DNA of 64,000 bases from Candidatus Brocadiia bacterium (GTDB taxonomy: Bacteria > Planctomycetota > MHYJ01 > JACQXL01): positions 260,916 to 324,915 of the forward strand of contig JBBAAP010000001.1 of NCBI GenBank assembly GCA_041658285.1, in the 5' to 3' direction. Numbering within the stretch: the stretch's first letter is position 1; each line of letters starts with the position of its first letter. Positions 6,734 through 55,036 of this stretch are shown one piece after another. A program made the translations under genes and the position numbers. The notes under the pieces were generated by a model. The model was not told the origin of the DNA. It saw nothing but the letters and a program-made list of their open reading frames with translations, and did not search any database.

Positions 6734-7165
6734 ATGGCAATGAAACTTCCAGGTAAAAGCCGTATATCAGCGGCCGCTCATAAGGCGCCAGAGGTAAAAA
6801 AGGCACCGGAGCCCGCGGCACCGCCCTCACCGTCCGCCTATCCGATGAAGACGGCCATAACCTTCGGCGTGCTCCATGTAATATTCGCTTTATCTGTCAC
6901 CGTCTGGAACTTTAACCTGAGCATTTTGCAACCCAACAGCGCCGATTGGATTATCAGATTACTGGAAATCCCGGGCGCCCTGTTTGTCAGCCTGATCGGA
7001 CAGGCCGATAATGTCAACTCATTCCTGCCCTATCTTATTGTTTACCTCATCAATACACTTATCTATGCTGCCATAGGCTATGGCGTCGGCATCCTTATAA
7101 TAAAATATAAGATAGACGAGGAATTAAAAACCATCCTCCATCTGGAGGAAGAAGCATATCAATAG
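6734..7165 (+). CDS. Hypothetical small membrane protein
   Basis: 143 aa with a Pro/Ala-rich N-terminus followed by 3 predicted TM helices. A possible TTGACA...TATAAAT promoter lies at 6693-6719. Confidence 0.5.
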   Translation: MAMKLPGKSRISAAAHKAPEVKKAPEPAAPPSPSAYPMKTAITFGVLHVIFALSVTVWNFNLSILQPNSADWIIRLLEIPGALFVSLIGQADNVNSFLPYLIVYLINTLIYAAIGYGVGILIIKYKIDEELKTILHLEEEAYQ

Positions 7166-9211: not shown

Positions 9212-10957
9212 ATGTCAAAGAATGTAGTTTTCGATGAACAGATACGGCTTTTGCTTAAAAAAGGCGTAGACAAAACGGTCCGGGCGGTTAAATACACCTA
9301 TGGCCCGGCCGGACGGGCGGTGATGATTGACAAGGGCTGGGGCAGCCCGTCCGTTACCCGGGACGGGGCCAGCGTAGCAGACGAAATCGATCTGATTGAC
9401 CCGCAAGAAAATCTGGGAGCCCAGATGGTCAAAGCGGCCGCCTCTAAAACAAATGACGATACCGGCGACGGCTCAACCACTACCGTTATCCTGGTCGGTG
9501 CGATATTCACCGAAGGGCTCAAACACGTCACCGCCGGCGGCAACGCCATGGCCATAGGCCGGGGGATCAAAAAGGCTGTCGCCAAACTGACCGAAGAAAT
9601 TAAAAAGATATCAGAACCGGTCAAGGTCGAACGCAGCAAAACCAACAAAATAATCAACCAGATAGCCACTGTGGCGGCCGGCAACGACCCGGTCATCGGG
9701 AAATTCATAGCTGACGCCATGGACAAGGTCTTGGCCGACGGCGTCATTACCATCGAAGAAGGCAAAGGCACCGAAACCGATGTCAAAATCGTCGAGGGTA
9801 TGCAATTCGACCGCGGTTTCGTGTCGCCCTACTTCATAACTAACCAGGAAAAGATGGAAGTTATCCTGAACAACCCATACATTCTTATCTACGAAGACAA
9901 AATCTCCAACCAGAATGATTTAATCCCGCTGATGGAGTCGCTCATCAAGGAAAAACGCCCGCTTCTTATTATCGCCGAGGACATTGAAGGCGATGCCCTG
10001 GCTACGCTGGTCGTCAATAAAGTTAAAGGCACGCTGGAATGCGCCGCGGTCAAAGCGCCCGGTTACGGCGACCGCCGGAAGGAAATGATTGAAGACATCG
10101 CTATAATGACCGGCGGCAAGGCCGTATTCAAAGACCTGGGCGTAAACATCAAGAAACTGCCTAAGGAATACCTGGGCACAGCCCGCAAGGTCATTATCGA
10201 TTCGGAAAATACCACCATCGTCGAAGGCGCCGGAACTTCCAAGGAAATTAAAGCACGTACCGAAAAAATAAGGTCAGAGATGGCCAAAAGCGATTCCGAT
10301 TACGACCGGGAAAAACTCCAGGAACGACTGGCCCGGTTCAGCGGCGGAATCGCACAGATAAACATAGGCGCGTCCACCGAAACCGAACTCAAGGGCAAGA
10401 AAGAGCGGGCTGAGTCGGCACTGTCAGCCGTTAAGGCGGCCCTGGAAGAAGGCGTAGTCACGGGCGGCGGAATTGCGCTGCTCCGTATCACCAGCGCGCT
10501 GGATAAACTTAAGTTCGAAGGCGACGAACAGATTGGCGTCGAGGTCATCAGAAAAGCCCTGGAACTGCCCTTCCGCCAACTCATTGAAAACAGCGGACGC
10601 GAACCGTCATCAATACGACGCAAACTCAACTTATCCACTAAACCAGACTGGGGATTTGATATCCAAGCCGGCGAAATCCGCAACATGACCGAAGCAGGCA
10701 TCCTGGACGCCACCAAGGTAGTTCGGACTGCATTACAAAACGCGGCCAGCGTAGCTGAACTGCTTTTAACCACCAACGCCGCAATCACCGATATCAAGGA
10801 AAAAAATGGGGGCGGACCGCAGATGCCTCCGGGCGGAATGCCCGGCATGGGCGGTATGCCTGGTATGGGTGGAATGCCCGGAATGGGTGGTATGCCCGAT
10901 ATGGGTGGTATGCCCGATATGGGTGGCATGGATATGCGCGGAATGGGTATGGATTAA
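9212..10957 (+). CDS. groEL: Chaperonin GroEL paralog 1 (Cpn60) with a C-terminal GGM repeat tail
   Basis: 581 aa, colinear with GroEL (GPAGRAVMIDKGWGSP, TGDGSTTTVIL, GGGIALLR). A strong SD (AGGAGGA) precedes it and no groES gene lies immediately upstream. The C-terminus carries GGMPGMGGMPGMGGM repeats. Confidence 0.93.
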   Translation: MSKNVVFDEQIRLLLKKGVDKTVRAVKYTYGPAGRAVMIDKGWGSPSVTRDGASVADEIDLIDPQENLGAQMVKAAASKTNDDTGDGSTTTVILVGAIFTEGLKHVTAGGNAMAIGRGIKKAVAKLTEEIKKISEPVKVERSKTNKIINQIATVAAGNDPVIGKFIADAMDKVLADGVITIEEGKGTETDVKIVEGMQFDRGFVSPYFITNQEKMEVILNNPYILIYEDKISNQNDLIPLMESLIKEKRPLLIIAEDIEGDALATLVVNKVKGTLECAAVKAPGYGDRRKEMIEDIAIMTGGKAVFKDLGVNIKKLPKEYLGTARKVIIDSENTTIVEGAGTSKEIKARTEKIRSEMAKSDSDYDREKLQERLARFSGGIAQINIGASTETELKGKKERAESALSAVKAALEEGVVTGGGIALLRITSALDKLKFEGDEQIGVEVIRKALELPFRQLIENSGREPSSIRRKLNLSTKPDWGFDIQAGEIRNMTEAGILDATKVVRTALQNAASVAELLLTTNAAITDIKEKNGGGPQMPPGGMPGMGGMPGMGGMPGMGGMPDMGGMPDMGGMDMRGMGMD

Positions 10958-22502: not shown

Positions 22503-23906
22503 TTAGTGTGCATTCGTGGTTTCAGCGGGGAATATTTTGCCGGAATTCATTATCCCCTTGGGGTCAAAGAGTGTTTTCAACTGCTTCATCAGCTCTATCT
22601 CGGCGGCGCTCAGCTCCAGCGCCAGGAAACGCGACTTGGTCAGCCCGATGCCGTGCTCGCCTGAAAGCGTTCCGCCGCACTTAACGGTCTCGGTAAAGAG
22701 TTCGTCCAACGCCTTTTCCAACGATGTTTTGTGTGCCTCGTTAGAGATAAGGAAATTAACGTGCAGGTTGCCGTCGCCCAGATGGCCGAAGGTGGCAATG
22801 GGGATTCCGTATTTTGATTCTATGGACTTAATCACGGCCAGGATATGGGTGATTTGGTCACGCGGCACGCAGATGTCCTCACTGGCCTTCTGGGCGGTGA
22901 TGGAATAAAGCGCCGGAGAAACGGCCTTGCGGATGGCCCAGAGCGATTTGGCTTCTTCCGGGCCGTTTGCCCGGAGCATCTTGCCCGGCCTTGACTGGCT
23001 GATTAATTCCTCCAGCGCCTTGGCTTGGCCGGCCAAGTCGTTCGGGTCGCCGTCCAGCTCTATCAAAATCCCGCTCCCAATTTCGGATTTCGGATTTCGG
23101 ATTTCGGATTTACCAAAATCAATATCTTTAAGATATGCTGTAACCGCCTTGAGCGATGAAGCGTCCATAAACTCTATGGCCCGGGGCAATATCCGTTTGG
23201 CCAGCGTATCCAACCCCAGCTTTACGGCCGCCGGTTCATTATCGTAAAATATAAAGAAAGTCGCCTCGGACTGCGGTTTGGGCACCAGCCGCAGGATTAT
23301 CTGGGTGATGATGCCCAGGGTTCCCTCGGAACCGATAAACAGGCGGGCCAGGTCGTAGCCGGTCGAGCGCTTGAGCGTCTTGCGTCCGGTATGGATGATT
23401 TGACCGCTGGGCAGGACAGCTTCCAGCCCAAGCACGTAATCCCTGGTGGTGCCGTATTTGATACAGCGCAGGCCTCCGGCGCCGCAGGCAACATTGCCGC
23501 CCAGGGTGCAGAAATCGGCGCTGGCCGGGTCAGGCGGGTAAAACAGGCCGTGCCGGCTGACCGCCTTCTGAAAATCAGCGCAGACCACACCCGGCTCAAC
23601 CACGGCCGTGAAGTTAACCGGATTAATCTCTATGATACGGTTCATTAAAGACAGGTCTATGACAATCCCGCCCTTGACCGGCACGGCCGAGCCGGTAACG
23701 GAACTGGCCGCACCCCGCGGGTAGACCGGGGTAGCGTGCTCCGAGGCAATCTTAAGGACATCGGATATCTCGGCGGCATTAAGCGGCTTAACAACTATGT
23801 CCGGCAGATGCTGGAGTTTGGAGGCGTCGTAAGACGCGGCTAACCGGTCCTCAGGCAACCTGGAAATCCGTTCCGCCGAGATTATTTTTCTTAGTTTGTC
23901 GTACAT
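22503..23906 (-). CDS. glcD: FAD-linked oxidase, GlcD / D-lactate dehydrogenase-like
   Basis: It has the FAD-binding PCMH domain (PRGAASSVTGSAVP...) and the conserved C-terminal GTLSGEHGIG motif. It contains an in-frame heptanucleotide repeat insert. Confidence 0.85.
   Translation of the reverse strand: MYDKLRKIISAERISRLPEDRLAASYDASKLQHLPDIVVKPLNAAEISDVLKIASEHATPVYPRGAASSVTGSAVPVKGGIVIDLSLMNRIIEINPVNFTAVVEPGVVCADFQKAVSRHGLFYPPDPASADFCTLGGNVACGAGGLRCIKYGTTRDYVLGLEAVLPSGQIIHTGRKTLKRSTGYDLARLFIGSEGTLGIITQIILRLVPKPQSEATFFIFYDNEPAAVKLGLDTLAKRILPRAIEFMDASSLKAVTAYLKDIDFGKSEIRNPKSEIGSGILIELDGDPNDLAGQAKALEELISQSRPGKMLRANGPEEAKSLWAIRKAVSPALYSITAQKASEDICVPRDQITHILAVIKSIESKYGIPIATFGHLGDGNLHVNFLISNEAHKTSLEKALDELFTETVKCGGTLSGEHGIGLTKSRFLALELSAAEIELMKQLKTLFDPKGIMNSGKIFPAETTNAH
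23080..23111. repeat. Heptanucleotide microsatellite (ATTTCGG) x4.6 inside the glcD-like coding sequence
   Basis: Copies start at 23080, 23087, 23094 and 23101, followed by a partial copy. On the minus strand it encodes KSEIRNPKSEIG, an insert relative to E. coli GlcD in the loop before the conserved ELDG. Confidence 0.85.
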
Positions 23907-24190
23907 ATTAATTAGTTTACTTAGGATTATGTATAAATCAAGACATTTAAGAAAGTATACTCTGGCAGTTTGATGGCGTCTTTGGCGCCAGAATTACTGC
24001 CAAGTATCCTGGGCTAATAACTCACTGCATTCTAACAGCCCACGGATAATTAAAGTTGAGTTCTGGCCAAATAAATTGACACTTCCGGATAAAATGACTT
24101 AATATGATTTAAGGAAAATAAAATCAGGCAAAAGGAAATAGACGCGAACGGGTGTGTTTCCAACCCAAATAATAATGATGGAGGCTAAAT

Positions 24191-26014
24191 ATGGGTTTAT
24201 TTGCGTCAATAATTCATTTACGAGATGTTGAGCAAAACCAGGTAATCAAAGAAATTGATAAGCGTATGAGTGAGTCAGGGTATCGCAGGAGTGAATTATT
24301 GTCTATTCCCCAAAGTGGTCCTTCCACACTCCCCGACCACAAAAAATGGATGAACGATGGCAAGTACTACTTAGTTTCGCCTAAACAAGGTAATTGGGTA
24401 ACCATTATTGAGTCGCCACTTGTAACTACCGAACCATATGGAAGCGGCCTTGCCAACATGTTAAGCAAAACATTATCCACATACTCATTAGCGTTAAGTG
24501 TCCACGATAGTGATATCTTCTTCTACAATTTAGATTATAAGGGAGTCCCCAAAGACGGGTATAACAGTTATCCTCAGTACTTTGAGGATGCGCGACTCAG
24601 TAATGCTAAGGTAAAAGAACAAAGGCATACGCCGGAAGAGTTTCAACCAATTTTACCTCAAGGCGTAACAATGGAGCAATTAAAAAACATTTTAAATGCC
24701 GGCTGGTGGAATGAATTTGATACGGGTTCTTTAGGTAATGATGGCGCAGTCACCGGAAATGATGAGTATTTTGGTTCAGAGGAAAATAGAATGACCGATT
24801 TTGGCACCTTACTACAATTAGGTGGCAAAGTGACTAAATATCCATATGCGTTTTGGGATGGGTCGGAAGATATTCTATGGAAGGAATTCAAGGCTATTAG
24901 ATACTTAAAACAGAAAAATAGCTGTATGATATTTTTCGATAATGAAATCCAGGAGAACTCAACTTATGCACAAAGGTTTTTTTCCTTATGCATTGATTTC
25001 AGCACATTTTTATTATTAGCATTAATTTGTACACTAGCGCCTGAGCCATACGATACAATTTCCGCATTTACCTTGATTGTATGGTATATTGTATGGCATA
25101 AAATATTCCGAAAAACAGGACAAACCATTGGAACAAAGTTAATGAGAATAAGAGTTGTTCCGATGTATGGGTCTAAATTATCTTTTATAGCCCCGTTTTA
25201 CCGAATATTTTTAAGCGCTCCTCAATTTGCTCTTTTTGCGGCATACGAAAACATAGACCGGCATGAAGACCAATCTATCCTTGATAAGGTATCGCATACA
25301 TATACAATTAAACTAAAAAATAAAATCGTTAGCAAAGGGACCGTTTCTACCGGCGGAGATGCTGCAACCCAGGGACAAAAAATCTTTACAGGCAGAAATA
25401 AATACCGCCAAGCGAGCATTCAACGACTGAGCAAGTTTGGTATCAAAATTCCCGGACACCTACCTTTAATCGAGAATAATTCGGAGTTGAATCCTAGAAG
25501 TAAGGATGAGGTAATAGGCAAAATATGCGCCTTTGGATATGTCATTGGCATGGGGTACACTGATAAAACAGATGATTTGATTGCCAGTATAGATAAATAC
25601 AAACTTTGGCCATATGTCAGTCAGTTCCAGGCCAAGTGCCTTAAAAATCCGGGTAGTATAACAAAACAGGACAAGACAAATTTTATGTGGCTGGCCGAGT
25701 GCGTTTATGCATTTGCTTGGTGTCTGAAGATTGTTGAACTGGATTGCACTAAAACCTGCCCTGATAATCTGGCTGATTTAACCGTTCCAGGCCATACGCC
25801 GGATGAATTCATGAAGAACAAGGAAATGAGGAGCCTTGAAGAAATACAACAAGAAGCGGATTTTCATTACTGCTTACATTGGTATGAGCAACAATGCCGT
25901 ATAGATGGCAAAAAGGGGTTAGTTGGAGAAGGGGTAATCTGGGAAAGAAGAAGAGCATTGGATTGGACGATTGGCGTTTCTAACGACTGGGATGATATGC
26001 CAAGCGATACCTAA
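24191..26014 (+). CDS. Hypothetical protein with a central RDD-family membrane domain (low-GC islet)
   Basis: 607 aa with GGAGG as SD. The central TM pair carries the RDD-like motif (GQTIGTKLMRIRVV). The C-terminal ~250 aa contain FMWLAECVYAFAWCLKIVE ... ERRRALDWTIGVSNDWDDMPSDT, which resembles DUF4272-type C-terminal domains. GC content is markedly lower than in the flanking DNA. Confidence 0.6.
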   Translation: MGLFASIIHLRDVEQNQVIKEIDKRMSESGYRRSELLSIPQSGPSTLPDHKKWMNDGKYYLVSPKQGNWVTIIESPLVTTEPYGSGLANMLSKTLSTYSLALSVHDSDIFFYNLDYKGVPKDGYNSYPQYFEDARLSNAKVKEQRHTPEEFQPILPQGVTMEQLKNILNAGWWNEFDTGSLGNDGAVTGNDEYFGSEENRMTDFGTLLQLGGKVTKYPYAFWDGSEDILWKEFKAIRYLKQKNSCMIFFDNEIQENSTYAQRFFSLCIDFSTFLLLALICTLAPEPYDTISAFTLIVWYIVWHKIFRKTGQTIGTKLMRIRVVPMYGSKLSFIAPFYRIFLSAPQFALFAAYENIDRHEDQSILDKVSHTYTIKLKNKIVSKGTVSTGGDAATQGQKIFTGRNKYRQASIQRLSKFGIKIPGHLPLIENNSELNPRSKDEVIGKICAFGYVIGMGYTDKTDDLIASIDKYKLWPYVSQFQAKCLKNPGSITKQDKTNFMWLAECVYAFAWCLKIVELDCTKTCPDNLADLTVPGHTPDEFMKNKEMRSLEEIQQEADFHYCLHWYEQQCRIDGKKGLVGEGVIWERRRALDWTIGVSNDWDDMPSDT

Positions 26015-26103
26015 GAGCCCTTGGGGACAGTCCCGCATTCGAGAGCCCTTGGGGACAGTCCCGCATTCGGCAAGAGCCCTTGGGGACAGTCCCGCATTCG
26101 GCA
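26014..26103. repeat. Tandem array A: 3 copies of a 28-31-bp unit (AGAGCCCTTGGGGACAGTCCCGCATTCG) containing the GGGACAGTCCC palindrome
   Basis: The copies start at 26014, 26042 and 26073 with no spacers. The first copy overlaps the stop codon of the 607-aa gene. Confidence 0.85.
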
Positions 26104-26180
26104 AACGCTGTTTTTATAGCCATTCCAAGGCGTTATTTTCTAAAAATAACCCTCTTTTAGCCTTGGAGAGTATTATATAG

Positions 26181-26311
26181 GAGCTGTGTTAGTCAACACC
26201 GGAGCTATGTGATATAACATAAGAGCTGTGTGATATAACATAAGAGCTGTGTGATATAACATAAGAGCTGTGTGATATAACATAAGAGCAATATGACATC
26301 ATATTGCTCTT
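26181..26311. repeat. Tandem array B: 5 copies of a 21-bp unit (GAGCTGTGTGATATAACATAA) followed by a perfect 11-bp-stem hairpin
   Basis: The copies start at 26181 (degenerate), 26202, 26223, 26244 and 26265. The hairpin AGAGCAATATG-ACAT-CATATTGCTCT follows at 26284-26311. Confidence 0.85.
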
Positions 26312-26458
26312 GGGGCCCGGATAAACCAAGTAATTAAGCCCATTTAAGAGCATCATTTTCTCAAACCCGCCCTATTCCACCTCAAAAACGAATATAACGC
26401 ACTTCCAGCCAGGGGGGGGTATCCCCCCCATACTATACCCCCTCCCCCCGGATACTAC

Positions 26459-26580
26459 ATACCTTGTGAGGTGGTTATATATACCTTGTGAGGTGGTTAT
26501 ATATACCTTGTGAGGTGGTTATATATACCTTGTGAGGTGGTTATACATACCTTGTAAGGTGGTTATATATACCTTGCATC
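26459..26580. repeat. Tandem array C: 5.5 copies of a 22-bp unit (ATACCTTGTGAGGTGGTTATAT), preceded by G8 and C7 homopolymer tracts at 26412-26429
   Basis: The copies start at 26459, 26481, 26503, 26525 and 26547, with a partial copy at 26569. The array abuts the suhB stop. Confidence 0.85.
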
Positions 26581-26584
26581 TTAC

Positions 26585-27391
26585 CTACCCCCTATTTATG
26601 ACCCGGACCATCTCGTTATGTATCAATCCGTTGGAGGCAAGAATCTCTCTCTTGCCAAACAACCGGAACGGCCCGCCCTTGAAGTCGCTGACCTTGCCGC
26701 CGGCCTCCTGCGCGATAAGCGCTCCGGCCGCCGTATCCCAGGGCTTTAATTCCCGTTCCCAGAACCCGTCCAGCCGACCCATAGCTAAATAGCATAAATC
26801 CAAAGCGGCCGCCCCAGCCCGGCGCACCGCCTGGGCCGTCAGGCAGAAGCGTTGGAAGTTCCTAAAGTTATCACCAGGCTTCTGTCTTATAATGTAAGGA
26901 AACCCGGTGCAGAGCATGCCGCTGGTCAGGCGTTTGACCTTTGATACCTTTATTCTTCCATCATTAAGCCACGCGCCCTTTCCTTTGACGGCTGAGAATA
27001 ACTCGTCCAGGGCCGGACTATAGACCGCGCCGATAAGCGGCGTCTGGCCTTGCACCAGGGCTATGGACACGCAATAGAACGGGAATGAGTGCGAGAAGTT
27101 TGTAGTGCCGTCCAAAGGGTCGATGACCCAACATAATGATGAATTATGAGTTATAAATTCTGAATTATAACGCCTTATCGAACCAGCGTCTTCTTCGGAC
27201 AAGATTTGGTGCTGTGGAAAGCGCTTGCGGATGGCGCTGATAATCAGCTTCTCGGAGAGCTTGTCGGCTTTGGTGACCAGGTCAAGCTCGGTGGACTTGG
27301 TTTTGGCAGAACATCTGCCTTCGAGACTGTGTATTAACCGCCCAGCCCGACGGGCAAGAACCCTGGCAAATTGGAGATATTCGTTCATCAT
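26585..27391 (-). CDS. suhB: Inositol monophosphatase family protein (SuhB-like)
   Basis: It has the WVIDPLDGTTNF and GAAALDLCYLA... IMPase motifs. Confidence 0.85.
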   Translation of the reverse strand: MMNEYLQFARVLARRAGRLIHSLEGRCSAKTKSTELDLVTKADKLSEKLIISAIRKRFPQHQILSEEDAGSIRRYNSEFITHNSSLCWVIDPLDGTTNFSHSFPFYCVSIALVQGQTPLIGAVYSPALDELFSAVKGKGAWLNDGRIKVSKVKRLTSGMLCTGFPYIIRQKPGDNFRNFQRFCLTAQAVRRAGAAALDLCYLAMGRLDGFWERELKPWDTAAGALIAQEAGGKVSDFKGGPFRLFGKREILASNGLIHNEMVRVINRG

Positions 27392-27459
27392 ATAAAGTTA
27401 TTTTAATAATACCCTCTTAGGGCCGGACTGTCAAAACAATCTTATTACCCGTCTTCGCC

Positions 27460-27610
27460 ATATTAAACCACTAAGTGCACTAAGAACACTGATTGTTTCA
27501 TTAATATACCACGAAAACTCGAAATAACCAAAACACAAAATTTAGTGTTTTCTTACTTTCGTGCCTTCGTGGTAAGATTGAAAATCAGTGATTTCAGTGT
27601 TCTCAGTGGT
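27460..27610. repeat. Mosaic palindromic intergenic repeat (CAC-NNA-G family), full copy
   Basis: The left arm AACCACTAAG..AACACTGA pairs with the right arm TCAGTGTTCTCAGTGGTT. The inner module ...CCACGAAAACTCGAAAT...CTTACTTTCGTGCCTTCGTGGTAAG is the reverse complement of the module at 28963-29040. Confidence 0.8.
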
Positions 27611-27616
27611 TGTATT

Positions 27617-51158: not shown

Positions 51159-51729
51159 AAATCACCTCTTACTCGCTGTTAGCCTTCAGACATCCCGAAA
51201 GCATTCGGGAGGGCTGAGGCGTTACAGCCGAGTTAGATCCCGTCTGTTCCGACGGGATAATCCTTGCAGAATTCTATCTCGTTATACGGATACAGTGTCC
51301 GAATTCCACCCAAGAAACCCATATTCGCAGGAGACAAGGGCAACCCTTTGGCCAAGGAAACCCGGGGCAACCCGGCATCCCTGCCCGACTGGTCAGCCAC
51401 CCCTACCAACCCGGTCAGGCGGGCTTACGGATACCCCGGAGGGTGCGTTTCCTGTGCCCGAGGGCGCCCTTGCCCTCCACTATATACTCTGCCGGACCCC
51501 CACCCCTTTTGGGGAAAAATCCGGGAATTCCGGAAAGAAAGTTTAGCCAGAGCAAAACCTCCTGTAAGGACGGATTAACACGGATAAATATGGCTATAAT
51601 TAAATCTGTGTAATCAGTGGCTAAAACTTGACAGCCCCACGGAAATGGTATATTAGAGGCTTATTAATTATTAATTGAAGTTGTGGCAAAGTCAAGCAGG
51701 TAAAATAATCGTATTAAAGGATGCGTTGT

Positions 51730-52515
51730 ATGAATGAAGCCAGCAGGTTCCTTCGTTATGTATTGCCTAGTTTAATAATGTTACTAGAGTTTTTTATATA
51801 CCTATGTATTTCTAACTTTGGGGATGCGAAAAAATTACTAGAATATATACGTGGTGACATAGGAATAGCTATTATTTCTTTCTTGGGCGTCGGCGCTATG
51901 GGATATTTTTTATCAATGTTTTATTATTCCCTTTGCCCTCTAGTAGATTATCGCCCCCTTATTAAGGCTTGTACGGAATGGAATTTGTTAAGATTACAAG
52001 ATAGAAGTACACACAAACCTATAGATGTTGATAAGATTTCGCGTGATGGCGCGTGGCGAATAGCAGTTACGCTCTGGCAGGAAAATAAGATGAAAGACGA
52101 GGGGATAAAAGGAGCAGATGATAGGCAAGAAAGGTTTAGCGATATACTTAATAGTCACGGTGTAGCTTTAATTGGCGCAATTATAGGAATCCTTGGATGG
52201 TTTGCTTATATCACGTATACTGGGTTTATTAGGTCTCCAGTTTTTTGGGACAAGTGGCCTTTTATTATTTCGGTACCTATGCTAATAATACTTTTGCACA
52301 TATCTAATTTTAAGAATGCTCGTGAAACTGCTCTAACAATAGGGGAAACTGTATTATTTAATGCATTATCGAATAACTTTAAAATACCTTCAGAATTATA
52401 TGTCGAAAATAAAATACCAGAAGAGGAAAGAAGAAAAATAAATGCTAAGAAAATCTTTAGCATTAATTTTGGCAAGTATAACAAAGTAACATTTGAACGG
52501 TTTTATAATAATTAA
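51730..52515 (+). CDS. Hypothetical 4-TM membrane protein (low-GC islet); possible membrane effector
   Basis: It has two TM hairpins (residues ~13-70 and ~157-205) separated by a charged soluble loop. The tracked start is 51721; I prefer the ATG at 51730 because of the upstream AAAGG. Confidence 0.55.
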   Translation: MNEASRFLRYVLPSLIMLLEFFIYLCISNFGDAKKLLEYIRGDIGIAIISFLGVGAMGYFLSMFYYSLCPLVDYRPLIKACTEWNLLRLQDRSTHKPIDVDKISRDGAWRIAVTLWQENKMKDEGIKGADDRQERFSDILNSHGVALIGAIIGILGWFAYITYTGFIRSPVFWDKWPFIISVPMLIILLHISNFKNARETALTIGETVLFNALSNNFKIPSELYVENKIPEEERRKINAKKIFSINFGKYNKVTFERFYNN

Positions 52516-52529
52516 TCAAGGGTTATCAG

Positions 52530-53546
52530 ATGACTATAAATTGTTTATTCTGTAATCAACCACTTACCCAAGATGCTCAAATTCTCACGACATGGATTTA
52601 TTTAGATAGCTGTAAAGAATGTGGGCTTTATTATAAAGACCAACGAGCCGATGTTACCACTAAAATCAATGCCGATGATAAAGTTCGTATTGCATCGTAC
52701 CTGCAAACAAAGAAGCTGAATAATTCACAAATAAGACCAGTTATTACTGACTTTAAAAACAAATCAGGAACAATTGAGGAATTAGAAGATAATGGAATAA
52801 ATCCTAATAAAATAACGCTAATTACAATTGAAGAAATGATAGATCAGTTCCCTAAAAGAATTGATGAGAAACTAAATAAGGCATTACAGAACTTAGGAAA
52901 ACTATCTCATTACTTAGGTGAACCAATTACTGTGGGTTTAAACTACCAACCAATTTTGTATGCGTTAAACTCAGGGGAATTTGAGGCAATATTATTCGCT
53001 TTGCGTGATGATGGCTATATAAAATGTACGTGGGATGGTATTGCTGGAACTAACCTCATTGTAATAACCCCTAAAGGTTATGAACGTATTTATGAATTAG
53101 GCAAGGTTAACCCGACCTCTCATCAGGCGTTTGTGGCGATGTGGTTTCCTGATCCTGTGAAAAATGAGACGGAGCATAACTTTTTGGATAATGTCTATAA
53201 AGAAGGGTTCGCAAAAGCAATTGATAATGCTGGCTATAAGCCTCAATTAATAAAGAATAAGGAATTCCTCGGCGAGATACACGATGAAATTATTGCAGAG
53301 ATAAAAAGGAGCAGGTTTTTAGTGGCCGATTTTACAGGCCAAAGAGGCGGGGTTTATTATGAGGCCGGATTTGCCCATGGATTAAATATCCCAGTCATAT
53401 ATACCTGTCACTGTGATTATATGAAGGACTGTCACTTCGACACCAATCACTATAATCATATCGTCTGGAAAGATGAGGCAGATTTATATACCCAATTATT
53501 GAATAGGATAAGGGCAACCATTGGACAGGGACCAAAAACAAATTAA
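52530..53546 (+). CDS. Zinc-ribbon / winged-helix / nucleoside 2-deoxyribosyltransferase-like (NDT/SLOG-type Rossmannoid) protein
   Basis: It has an N-terminal CxxC-x17-CxxC ribbon (CLFCNQ...CKECG). The middle is wHTH-like (AILFALRDDGYIKC...LIVITPKGYERIYEL). The C-terminus has FVAMWF (NDT beta1, cf. YFGAGWF) and RFLVADFTGQRGGVYYEAGFAHGLNIPVIY (NDT active-site region, cf. GLGMELGYALSQGKYV). Confidence 0.6.
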   Translation: MTINCLFCNQPLTQDAQILTTWIYLDSCKECGLYYKDQRADVTTKINADDKVRIASYLQTKKLNNSQIRPVITDFKNKSGTIEELEDNGINPNKITLITIEEMIDQFPKRIDEKLNKALQNLGKLSHYLGEPITVGLNYQPILYALNSGEFEAILFALRDDGYIKCTWDGIAGTNLIVITPKGYERIYELGKVNPTSHQAFVAMWFPDPVKNETEHNFLDNVYKEGFAKAIDNAGYKPQLIKNKEFLGEIHDEIIAEIKRSRFLVADFTGQRGGVYYEAGFAHGLNIPVIYTCHCDYMKDCHFDTNHYNHIVWKDEADLYTQLLNRIRATIGQGPKTN

Positions 53547-53699
53547 GCATTTTCCATCTTAATTCTTCCACCCTTCCTCCGTATTTTTTACCCATTCCTT
53601 CGTGCTTGCCCCCCGGAAAACCGCCTGAATCGCCATTTAATTGCCTTTCTGGCACATAGGGGGTGGCATCCCCCCTACCCCACACCATCCCTACCATAC

Positions 53700-54065
53700 C
53701 CTCAAGCCCATCCATATCTACCCAGGGCTTGGGGGTGCTTATACCTCCAACCCACCCATATCTACCTAGGGCTGGACCGTCATCCACCCTGGGATTGACC
53801 GTAATCCACCCAGGGCTTGAGGGTCATTATACCTCCAGCCCACCTACATCTTACCTCCAACCCATCCACATCTACCCAGGGCTTGACCGTCATCCACCCT
53901 GGGCTTGACCGTAATCCACCCAGGGCTTGGGGGGCATTATACCTCCATACCACCCACATCTTACCTCCAACCCATCCACATCTACCCAGGGCTGGACCGA
54001 CATCCACCTAGGGCTTGACCGTAATCCACCCAGGGCTTGAGGGTAATTATACCTGGTATGGAGGG
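53700..54065. repeat. Minisatellite: ~110-bp unit, ~3.3 tandem copies with nested 22-bp sub-repeats
   Basis: TCTACC(C/T)AGGGCT recurs at 53761, 53871 and 53981 (period 110), and ATCCACCCAGGGCTTGACCGT-like subunits recur within each unit. The ORFs called here (53395..54090, both strands) are repeat artefacts. Confidence 0.8.
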
Positions 54066-54203
54066 TAAGGCACCTTCGGAGTACTCGCAAATATTTTGAC
54101 TTATTTTATGTTTTAACCTATATTAAAACACGAAGCAGACGAATAATCTTTAATGCCACGAATAAGATTCGTGGGATTCGTTCTATTAGTGAGATTCGTG
54201 TTT

Positions 54204-54884
54204 ATGGATAACAGACCAGATGAGCAATTGACCGCGGCATATGTGTCCGGTGAACAGCCGGCATTCGACCACCTGGTCCACCGCTGGCAACCGAGGCTGT
54301 TCGGGTTCGCCTGCCGTAAGCTTTCCTGCATCGAACTCTTCGTGCCCGATACCAAACGAGGCGAAAGTAAAATCAACTCCGACGCCGACGAGGTGTCTGA
54401 GTCAACCATCGTATCCACCTGGAAAAACATCCGGCGCTTTAACGACACCCGGAAATTCTCGTCCTGGATTTATAAAATCTGCAAGGACGAGTGTTATATG
54501 TTCACCCGGTCCGAAGCGCGCCGGAACAAACATTGCGTGCCCCTGCCTGAGGATATCGACAAACTCAGATACGGCAAGGTGCGTGAATACGCCGAGGCCA
54601 AAATCACGATGGACTGCATCCTGGCTATCCTGAACCACCGACAGCACCGCTTGTTCGACCTGATTGTCGAGGACGGACGGCATTACGAGGCCATCCTGCA
54701 GGAGGACGAACTGTTCCGGGCAAATAACGAGCCGGAGCTGAGGGACGAATTCGCCGTGCTGATGGAAATGCTCTGGCTCAAACGGCAGAAGGAGATTGAC
54801 AACCTGCATAAGCACGACACCGAGTTCAGGGATATCAGCCTGCGGTACCACGCCGACGGCCCGCATATAAAGAAGGATAATTAG
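54204..54884 (+). CDS. RNA polymerase sigma factor, ECF-like
   Basis: Region 2 is present (AFDHLVHRWQPRLFGFA ... STWKNIRRF ... FSSWIYKICKDE). The tracked start is 54153; I prefer the ATG at 54204 (MDNRPDEQL). Confidence 0.65.
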   Translation: MDNRPDEQLTAAYVSGEQPAFDHLVHRWQPRLFGFACRKLSCIELFVPDTKRGESKINSDADEVSESTIVSTWKNIRRFNDTRKFSSWIYKICKDECYMFTRSEARRNKHCVPLPEDIDKLRYGKVREYAEAKITMDCILAILNHRQHRLFDLIVEDGRHYEAILQEDELFRANNEPELRDEFAVLMEMLWLKRQKEIDNLHKHDTEFRDISLRYHADGPHIKKDN

Positions 54885-55036
54885 CTAAGAAGAATTAGCC
54901 ACGAATGGACACGAATAAACACGAATATCACGGATTAAATTAATACTAGGAGAATTTACCACGAAGGCTCGAAACTATTAAAGCACGGAATATTTCGGGT
55001 TTTCGCTATTTCGTGGTTTCGTGGTAAAGGACTTAT

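Follow-up and report, generated by a model that had tools for sequence, protein, structure and literature searches.

Tandem repeat arrays and a GC hairpin between an accessory gene and suhB on a Candidatus Brocadiia chromosome, and their possible kinship with a phased 22-bp repeat family

What can be the nature of three tandem repeat arrays that are packed, without spacers, into one intergenic region of about 570 bp together with a run of eight G and a run of seven C? The question is raised by the region W1, located at positions 26014-26584 of a stretch of 64,000 nucleotides (nt), hereafter the window, from Candidatus Brocadiia bacterium (Planctomycetota; assembly GCA_041658285.1, contig JBBAAP010000001.1, positions 260,916 to 324,915 of the forward strand), between the gene of a 607-amino-acid (aa) protein and suhB. 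A preliminary description, made from the letters of the window, had called the region iteron-like and proposed a plasmid or phage origin, a parS-like partition site, or a dense regulator-binding array. According to our analysis, W1 is non-coding DNA on an ordinary chromosome of Candidatus Brocadiia, where it lies in a lineage-specific insertion slot of the suhB-glcD-glcF cluster, and most probably serves neither as a replication origin nor in partition. With moderate confidence, we interpret arrays B and C of W1 and its GC hairpin as a locally amplified copy of a clade-specific element, consisting of a phased 22-bp repeat and a GC hairpin, and accompanied by a private minisatellite (array A) in an accessory-gene slot.

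The repeats themselves are well established. Inspection of the sequence and Tandem Repeats Finder (TRF) place the arrays A, B and C, a hairpin and the sequence G8-TAT-C7 between the 607-aa gene and suhB, just as had been described. The units of all three arrays are arranged head to tail, are near-identical (91-98% matches in A, B and C by TRF) and contiguous, the start-to-start spacing being equal to the unit length; in the absence of unique spacers the region is not a CRISPR, which agrees with the initial assessment. Units A, B and C had no match in 100 dinucleotide shuffles of the window, nor elsewhere in the window, and no exact 20-mers of unit A were found in GTDB genomes and none of unit C in JGI metagenome contigs. 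The same sequences with the same flanks are present in an independent k-mer assembly of the run SRR8449812, the contigs of which end inside array A (L001, a Logan contig, which stops after 2.0 copies) and inside array C (L082). Such contig ends provide independent support for at least 2 and 2.8 copies of A and C, respectively, and indicate that the repeats exist in the reads; the exact copy numbers of the arrays, here and below, are uncertain, as the contig is metagenome-assembled. Small open reading frames (ORFs) inside the arrays were rejected as mechanical and not conserved.

The history of the region is best seen in array C, which is the closest to suhB (plus strand; 26459-26576 by TRF, delimited by us as 26459-26580). 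TRF reports it with a period of 22, 5.4 copies (the 5.5 given initially is thus practically the same), 96% matches and a score of 222; the unit is ATACCTTGTGAGGTGGTTATAT, and ~8 nt separate the end of the array from TAG, the stop codon of suhB (26585-26587, minus strand). We compared it with loci of relatives (L002, L003, L005, L007, L008, L083, L084, L085 and L087 among 87 fetched loci). In L002, the SuhB protein of which is 88% identical, the array C unit is present in 2.2 copies (6811-6859), its distance to the suhB stop being equal to that in the window, and units 1 and 2 are the TATATATA and then the TATGTATA variants, in the same order. Beyond this shared doublet the DNA of L002 and that of the window are unrelated, and array C of the window possesses, in comparison with the doublet, three further, mutually identical units. 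Because L002 carries 2.2 units right after the suhB stop, array C is an expanded old doublet, in which the two suhB-proximal units are ancestral and the three others represent a lineage-specific expansion. We suppose that the extra units were added by slipped-strand mispairing or by unequal recombination of single units. The 58 nt that follow the suhB stop are identical between the window and L002 at 53/58 positions (91%), compared with 78/110 (71%) of the suhB fourfold sites (binomial p=1.5e-4). Since this identity is above that of the fourfold sites, the ancestral units of array C look constrained, and the extra units recent.

The next argument comes from the runs of G and C, which had initially been regarded as hypermutable. 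They are not independent tracts of this kind: G8 (26412-26419) and C7 (26423-26429), with TAT between them, are complementary arms of one hairpin, and this hairpin recurs in relatives. The whole module, CAGGGGGGGG-TAT-CCCCCCC followed by ATACTATACCCCCTCCCCCC, occupies positions 26410-26450 on the plus strand (sequence, run census). The window contains 8 runs of six or more G or C, 6/8 of which belong to W1 and to the segment 53.6-53.9 kb, and only two hairpins of the type G5+…C5+, at 26412 and at 53659, the latter being part of a second repeat locus (W2, 53659-54054). In 903 kb of the fetched loci the hairpin pattern G{5,}-N0-8-YAT-C{5,} matched only W1, W2, L083 (10489) and L005 (8329), plus one unrelated sequence of Desulfobacteraceae, and each of the hairpins in W1, W2, L083 and L005 lies beside a 22-bp-periodic array. 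Furthermore, GGGGGTATCCCCCCCATACTATACCCCCTCCC (W1 26414-26446) aligns to L085 9438-9468 with z=8.7, the array of L085 beginning with GGGGGTATACCCC; so a G-run/YAT/C-run hairpin with a homologous flank is found in W1 (26412-26446, aligned to L085) and, in a similar form, in W2, L083 and L005. The link of W1 to the family through the hairpin is strong. As both runs lie in non-coding DNA and not between predicted -35 and -10 hexamers, they do not have the arrangement of a phase-variable contingency locus.

The second element copy, W2 (plus strand), consists of the hairpin GGGGGTGGCATCCCCCC and then ~15 units of 22 bp with a super-period of 110 bp (TRF, sequence), the array being ~340 bp long. Its location is downstream of a pair of accessory genes with low GC and immediately upstream of the promoter belonging to a sigma-70-family gene (54153-54884). 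Arrays orthologous to that of W2 were found in L085 (9440-9860) and L087 (1-130); in the case of L085, the flanking 268-aa protein is 82% and the sigma factor 70% identical to those of the window. Other copies of the element thus occupy the same positions in relatives, namely, the suhB-glcD gap and the DNA upstream of the orthologous sigma-factor gene. As in the pair discussed above, the arrays of L085 and L087 are more similar than the fourfold sites (93/101 vs 196/246 identical, p=4e-4).

An exact period of 22 bp is a property of array C, W2, L085, L087, L083 and L005. The fraction of matches at lag 22 is 0.58 in L085 (99th percentile of the null, 0.38), 0.62 in L087 (0.45), 0.54 in W2 (0.36), 0.42 in L005 (0.35) and 0.38 in L083 (0.34), the last array reaching 0.55 at lag 66. 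When 167 kb of DNA of the clade were scanned, lag 22 yielded 5 regions and each other lag from 15 to 33 yielded 0-2; in the DNA of other phyla (758 kb) the peaks fell on multiples of three and lag 22 was at background. A limited search of the anammox-related literature found no description of this phased 22-bp family.

As to the units of W1 themselves, their sequence link to the family would pass through the array of one relative, L083 (p ~0.003-0.007). Unit C resembles the L083 unit GAGGTGGTTTATATAATACC with p=0.003, and a query of two units of array B shows weak similarity to the phased array of L083 (p=0.007, unit shuffling). Array B (26202-26289, plus strand; unit (A)AGAGCTGTGTGATATAACAT) is reported by TRF with a period of 21, 4.2 copies, 98% matches and a score of 169. 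Of the initial description as five 21-bp units, the period stands, and the copy number is replaced by four near-perfect copies preceded on the 5' side, from ~26181, by one or two degenerate ones. The array is followed by the inverted repeat AAGAGCAATATGA/TCATATTGCTCTT (26284-26296 and 26299-26311, 2 nt between), for which a perfect stem of 11 bp had been claimed; the stem is perfect, its arms being 13 nt long. The final unit of array B runs on into the left arm, and a consensus scan scored the repeat as terminator-like on the minus strand. Together, B, C and G8-TAT-C7 resemble one element copy of ~400 bp, in which a G-run/C-run hairpin lies beside a degenerate 22-bp array.

Array A (26013-26104) has to be considered separately. 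TRF describes it with a period of 28/31, 3.0-3.1 copies and a score of 151-163; the unit, AAGAGCCCTTGGGGACAGTCCCGCATTCG(GC), is present three times and bears the 11-bp palindrome GGGACAGTCCC (26024-26034). The first unit begins within the TAA stop (26012-26014) of the 607-aa ORF, so all that had been noted about this array (28-31 bp, three copies, a palindromic core, an overlap with the stop codon) is correct. No relatives of array A were found in GTDB genomes, in IMG/VR, in the 87 fetched loci or among the arrays of relatives, and for this reason we treat it as a probable private minisatellite of this lineage, which is unrelated to the 22-bp family and abuts the stop of an acquired gene. One more small feature is common to A and B: the hexamer AAGAGC starts the units of both arrays, is present in both arms of the 13-nt inverted repeat and occurs again at 26346, so that 8/22 of its plus-strand copies in the window fall within 400 nt (25951-26346). 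Possible explanations are a half-site or a seeding microhomology that these repeats have in common.

Several facts weigh against the assignment of W1 to a 22-bp family. Array A is outside the family altogether, and the period of array B is 21, not 22. Consensus profiles of the period-22 units are not significantly alike between the arrays, except for the orthologous pair of the window and L002, and a position weight matrix built from the L083 units found nothing above chance in a scan of the window; in the absence of a shared unit consensus, the evidence for the family consists of the period, the hairpin module and a small number of short alignments (p ~0.003-0.01). The order of hairpin and array varies as well, the array preceding the hairpin in L083 and following it in W1, W2, L005 and L085. 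The G8-TAT-C7 stem has no T/U tract, being followed by ATACTATACC on the plus strand and by TGGCTGGAAG on the minus strand, and the terminator scan omits it; lacking a U tract, it is not a canonical intrinsic terminator. Finally, the above-neutral conservation, which was calculated on 58 + 101 nt, could be due to gene conversion or to local differences in mutation rate.

These facts bring in the explanation by neutral minisatellites, or variable-number tandem repeats (VNTRs), according to which replication slippage in a large spacer that tolerates insertions, in a genome rich in repeats, has produced arrays without function, and the 22-bp period was inherited from an ancestral array. The near identity of the units (96-100%), the private character of array A, the lack of a unit consensus common to the loci and the abundance of tandem repeats in Brocadiia genomes (PMC5854607), such as the 260 short tandem repeats in the genome of Kuenenia, a member of the same class (PMC5854607), would all be expected in this case, as would a difference in copy number at an orthologous site (5.4 in the window vs 2.2 in L002; this comparison between genomes covers array C, arrays A and B having no orthologue). 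However, conservation of the older units exceeds that of fourfold sites in both of the independent genome comparisons (p=1.5e-4 and 4e-4), the arrays recur beside a homologous hairpin module, and the clade is dominated by the single exact period of 22, whereas slippage alone should give many periods. Minisatellites scattered at random and lacking any conserved position relative to genes, the finding named at the outset as fatal for the iteron interpretation, are not what is observed either, as array C and W2 keep their positions relative to genes in relatives. We regard a purely neutral origin as somewhat unlikely. In comparison with the mycobacterial interspersed repetitive units (MIRUs) and bacterial VNTRs, the similarities are evident: near-identical units, tens of bp long and arranged head to tail, in intergenic DNA inside or between operon genes, a copy number differing at an orthologous site, and the ability of units to abut or overlap stops, as array A does. 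Unlike them, W1 packs three unrelated arrays into 570 bp, two of which would be assigned to a family defined by a 22-bp period and a hairpin, and the older units appear to be constrained.

The preferred interpretation, an amplified copy of the 22-bp element, also includes an accessory-gene slot, and the gene content around W1 allows this slot to be delimited. The window encodes PPDK, two GroEL paralogues, MutL, UvrA, PurF, peptidases and glycosyltransferases and is part of a 467-kb contig; such housekeeping genes throughout the window and the length of the contig indicate a chromosomal context, as does the NCBI name of the 607-aa protein, which assigns it to a Candidatus Brocadiia metagenome-assembled genome. 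The immediate neighbors of W1 are an orphan gene with DUF4272 and RDD domains, suhB, a gene of a radical SAM protein, and glcD/glcF. The insertion (23907-26584, 2.68 kb) is bounded by two core genes, suhB (inositol monophosphatase family; 26585-27391, minus strand; Pfam 1.4e-71) and the gene of a glcD-like FAD-linked oxidase (22503-23906, minus strand; identified by Pfam and by synteny in relatives). In four more distant Planctomycetota (L003, L005, L007 and L008) the glcD-like oxidase gene follows suhB after 0-70 nt on the same strand, and in the window the two genes are separated by these 2.68 kb, which comprise the 607-aa gene and then the arrays. In closer relatives the slot after suhB is filled differently: by two rve transposase genes and a gene of MjaI endonuclease in L002, by a DUF5677 gene and 1 kb of non-coding DNA in L083 (SuhB 77% identical), and by an HNH-like gene in L084 (SuhB 79% identical). 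As each closer relative has a different insert after suhB, the W1 slot is a variable accessory-gene slot in a conserved cluster.

The cargo of this insertion in the window is the 607-aa gene (24191-26014, plus strand), the product of which has an RDD domain (Pfam 7.7e-6) and a C-terminal DUF4272 (1.9e-35). Its GC content is 0.39, and it is convergent with suhB, which is on the minus strand, in agreement with the initial description. Among 5.8 billion proteins the only match of the 607-aa protein was itself, and no relative was found in metagenome contigs and no match in PADLOC. The situation at W2 is similar. In the window the cargo consists of the genes of a 264-aa orphan and of a 338-aa protein with a TIR-like match, in DNA of 33% GC, and at the orthologous place of L085 it consists of genes of an AAA_15/21 ATPase, a DUF4276 protein and a helix-turn-helix protein; in L005 the hairpin with its array is flanked by glcD and a type IIG restriction-modification gene. 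Each copy, hence, borders a slot whose accessory or defense-like genes differ between genomes, and in every case examined the arrays are resident and the neighboring cargo changes.

Two of these cargo segments have features that may be mentioned separately. The pair of orphan genes at 51721-53546 of the window (GC 0.33) includes the gene of the 338-aa protein, whose residues 232-318 have a TIR-effector-like match in PADLOC (1.6e-8); this gene could be a defense gene. The segment 6878-10127 of L002, which carries the two rve-type transposase genes and that of the MjaI-family restriction endonuclease, has candidate inverted repeats at 6896-6912 and 9534-9550.

Arrays that stay while the cargo beside them changes might be regarded as relics of the end of a mobile element or of a recombination landing pad, the 22-bp units being sites of a transposase or recombinase, as in the ends of Tn7 or Mu, and the hairpin being the site of exchange. 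Different cargo beside conserved arrays at two loci in several genomes is in line with this explanation. So is the fact that array C begins ~8 nt beyond the stop of a conserved gene, the final ~50 nt of which show unusual conservation of the DNA itself, and so are the resumption of homology between W2 and L085 only ~12 nt before the hairpin and the insertion sequence located ~35 nt from the units in L002. On the other hand, neither the insertion nor the 64-kb window contains a transposase or integrase gene, a second end in inverted orientation and a target-site duplication are both missing, and, in contrast to transposon ends, the units are near-identical direct repeats in tandem. The insertion is flanked by only one direct repeat, of 13 nt, which is within chance and does not fit the ancestral C-terminus of SuhB. 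Altogether, we consider a relic of this kind unlikely. A Tn7-like right end next to suhB, in particular, was rejected in the absence of tns genes, of a second end and of TG termini.

The direct repeat just mentioned, TTATGTAT(A/C)AATC (12/13 match), brackets 2.69 kb containing the insertion; one copy (23927-23939) is located 21 nt upstream of glcD and the other (26616-26628) within the conserved 3' end of suhB. It was tried and rejected as an att core, being at chance level and implying an old end of SuhB (…IHNPK*) unlike the C-terminus that is conserved in relatives.

A broader possibility is that the modules of a 22-bp array and a hairpin may be an undescribed kind of resident, selectively maintained non-coding boundary or landing-pad elements of chromosomes in Brocadiia-related Planctomycetota; they would then mark and perhaps, via recombination at the hairpin or phased binding of a protein, create the slots between core genes where defense and other accessory genes are exchanged without a linked integrase. 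We mention this idea as a rather doubtful one. If the association of modules and slots holds genome-wide, it would offer a sequence marker for hot spots of gene exchange in Planctomycetota and a testable candidate for a phased DNA-binding system.

The chromosomal setting also bears on the explanation proposed initially, namely, that W1 is an iteron-type replication origin or a centromere-like partition site that belongs to a plasmid or phage, either integrated or extrachromosomal. The gamma origin of R6K, a theta-replicating plasmid, contains seven 22-bp iterons. Tandem direct repeats of 17-22 bp in phase are indeed found here (array C, 22 bp, 5.4 copies; array B, 21 bp, 4.2 copies), and what holds good of the iteron comparison is the geometry of array C, which, with 22 bp or about two helical turns per unit, is R6K-like, all copies lying on one face of the helix; the adjacent gene of foreign composition (GC 0.39) might also speak for this explanation. 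However, the origin reading is otherwise unsupported. The 38 window ORFs scanned against Pfam include no rep, par, integrase, transposase or phage genes in the 64 kb, so an initiator gene is lacking, as is any extrachromosomal context on this housekeeping chromosome. No DnaA box (TTATCCACA, at most 1 mismatch) is present in 26014-26584, the counts over the window being near chance, and the parS sequence TGTTNCACGTGAAACA has 0 matches in the window at up to 3 mismatches, with no ParA or ParB domain among the scanned ORFs. The cumulative GC skew has no turning point at W1. Comparison with phage and plasmid collections, which had been suggested as a check, gave no match of units A, B or C in phage genomes or IMG/VR and, in plasmids, only one similarity, of array B to ~17-kb plasmids of Borreliella burgdorferi (e.g., NC_001849.2 13159-13238; H1-H13), with 76% identity over 80 nt. 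This match, array on array, is probably a coincidence, and we treat it as spurious. The suspicion that the 607-aa gene and the arrays might be found together on extrachromosomal contigs was not borne out, since the gene was found on no other contig, and a relative keeps only 2.2 units of array C beside suhB, with different DNA beyond. An origin or partition function of W1 is thus most improbable.

The sequence of a G-rich array and a stable hairpin, which is encountered in several loci (L083; W2 and L085 on the minus strand), suggests yet another explanation, a non-coding RNA locus, in which the array is transcribed and transcription ends at the GC hairpin, the product being, for example, a sponge for an RNA-binding protein or for ribosomes via GAGGTG-like words. 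The units do carry words resembling the Shine-Dalgarno sequence (GAGGTG/AGGAGG), and the plus-strand RNA 26005-26600 folds better than shuffled sequences (z=-5.3); such z-scores, however, are inflated for tandem repeats by self-complementarity. No Rfam match was obtained at gathering thresholds (only chance-level hits at E up to 1), no convincing promoter is seen upstream of the arrays, and the orientation of the array relative to the hairpin varies. A CsrB-like sponge RNA was dismissed because GGA motifs in L083 are no commoner than expected, as read by eye and not computed. We find an RNA gene at W1 quite unlikely, slightly more so than the relic of a mobile element.

Returning to the 22-bp element as we interpret it, the old units, which appear constrained and repeat with a step of about two helical turns (22 bp), would most likely function as DNA, in a phased array for binding on one face of the helix or in an architectural array. 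The conservation of the older units above the neutral level and the restriction of the 22-bp period to the clade lend some support to the regulator-binding array of the preliminary description, which is a possible reading. The GC hairpin most likely would serve as a bidirectional transcription stop or as an insulator that separates the foreign gene from the core genes.

Some insertion sequences target repetitive extragenic palindromic (REP) sequences, which are one of two further kinds of known repeats that deserve comparison. REPs are imperfect palindromes of 20-40 bp tagged with GTAG or CGTC, for which roles in termination, mRNA stability and DNA architecture have been proposed (PMC3733652). 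REPs and the bacterial interspersed mosaic elements (BIMEs) formed with them resemble W1 as lineage-specific intergenic elements with stem-loops, which occur as mosaics and sometimes in tandem (PMC3733652). However, A, B and C are direct, in-phase repeats, of which only A has a short palindromic core, no tag is present at the end of a stem, and the window contains no RAYT-like gene. Further copies of the units were looked for in the 64-kb window, where there are none. The dispersed satellite families of Leptospira interrogans and Methanocella conradii (PMC6749651), a situation that the survey of Subirana and Messeguer (2019; PMC6749651) describes as rare in prokaryotes, are similar in that related non-coding tandem arrays occupy several sites of the chromosome; unlike here, they share the sequence of the unit, while in the proposed family it is the period and the hairpin that are shared, the units differ, and the positions are kept between species. 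In this little-studied lineage we are dealing with non-coding 22-bp arrays that are tied to a conserved GC hairpin, keep their positions between species and have a lower rate of evolution than synonymous sites. In practice, they interrupt short-read assemblies and are usable as strain-typing loci.

Besides the 22-bp arrays, a second kind of repeat was noticed in the clade. Tandem words of 7-10 nt (CACGAA.., CGCAGAG.., CACAGAG..) occur as inverted pairs that form long intergenic hairpins, at 54165-54200, 54900-55025 and 27392-27616 of the window (the last corresponding to L082 1-190), at 8893-8918/9805-9830 of L083 and at 8105-8225 of L005. In L083 the entire DUF5677 gene is enclosed by such pairs, an arrangement that looks like an insertion of the gene into a hairpin loop.

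Short tandem repeats are also encountered inside coding regions. The surface loop of SuhB (approximately residues 68-87) is hypervariable among relatives and is coded by different short tandem DNA repeats in three genomes, the frame being kept in each: AATTATG-like, 4.9 copies, at 27135-27168 of the window; AAATCTG, 4.7 copies, at 6213-6245 of L002; and CGGTCAGC, 4.5 copies, at 8229-8264 of L083. The glcD-like gene on the other side of the insertion contains, within its coding region (22503-23906, minus strand), a perfect heptamer tract of ATTTCGG in 4.6 copies (23080-23111). Far from W1, two GroEL-type genes lie side by side, and the first of them (9212-10957) has at its 3' end a tandem repeat of 18/9 bp (10838-10952), which probably encodes a repeated C-terminal tail rich in Gly, Met and Pro.

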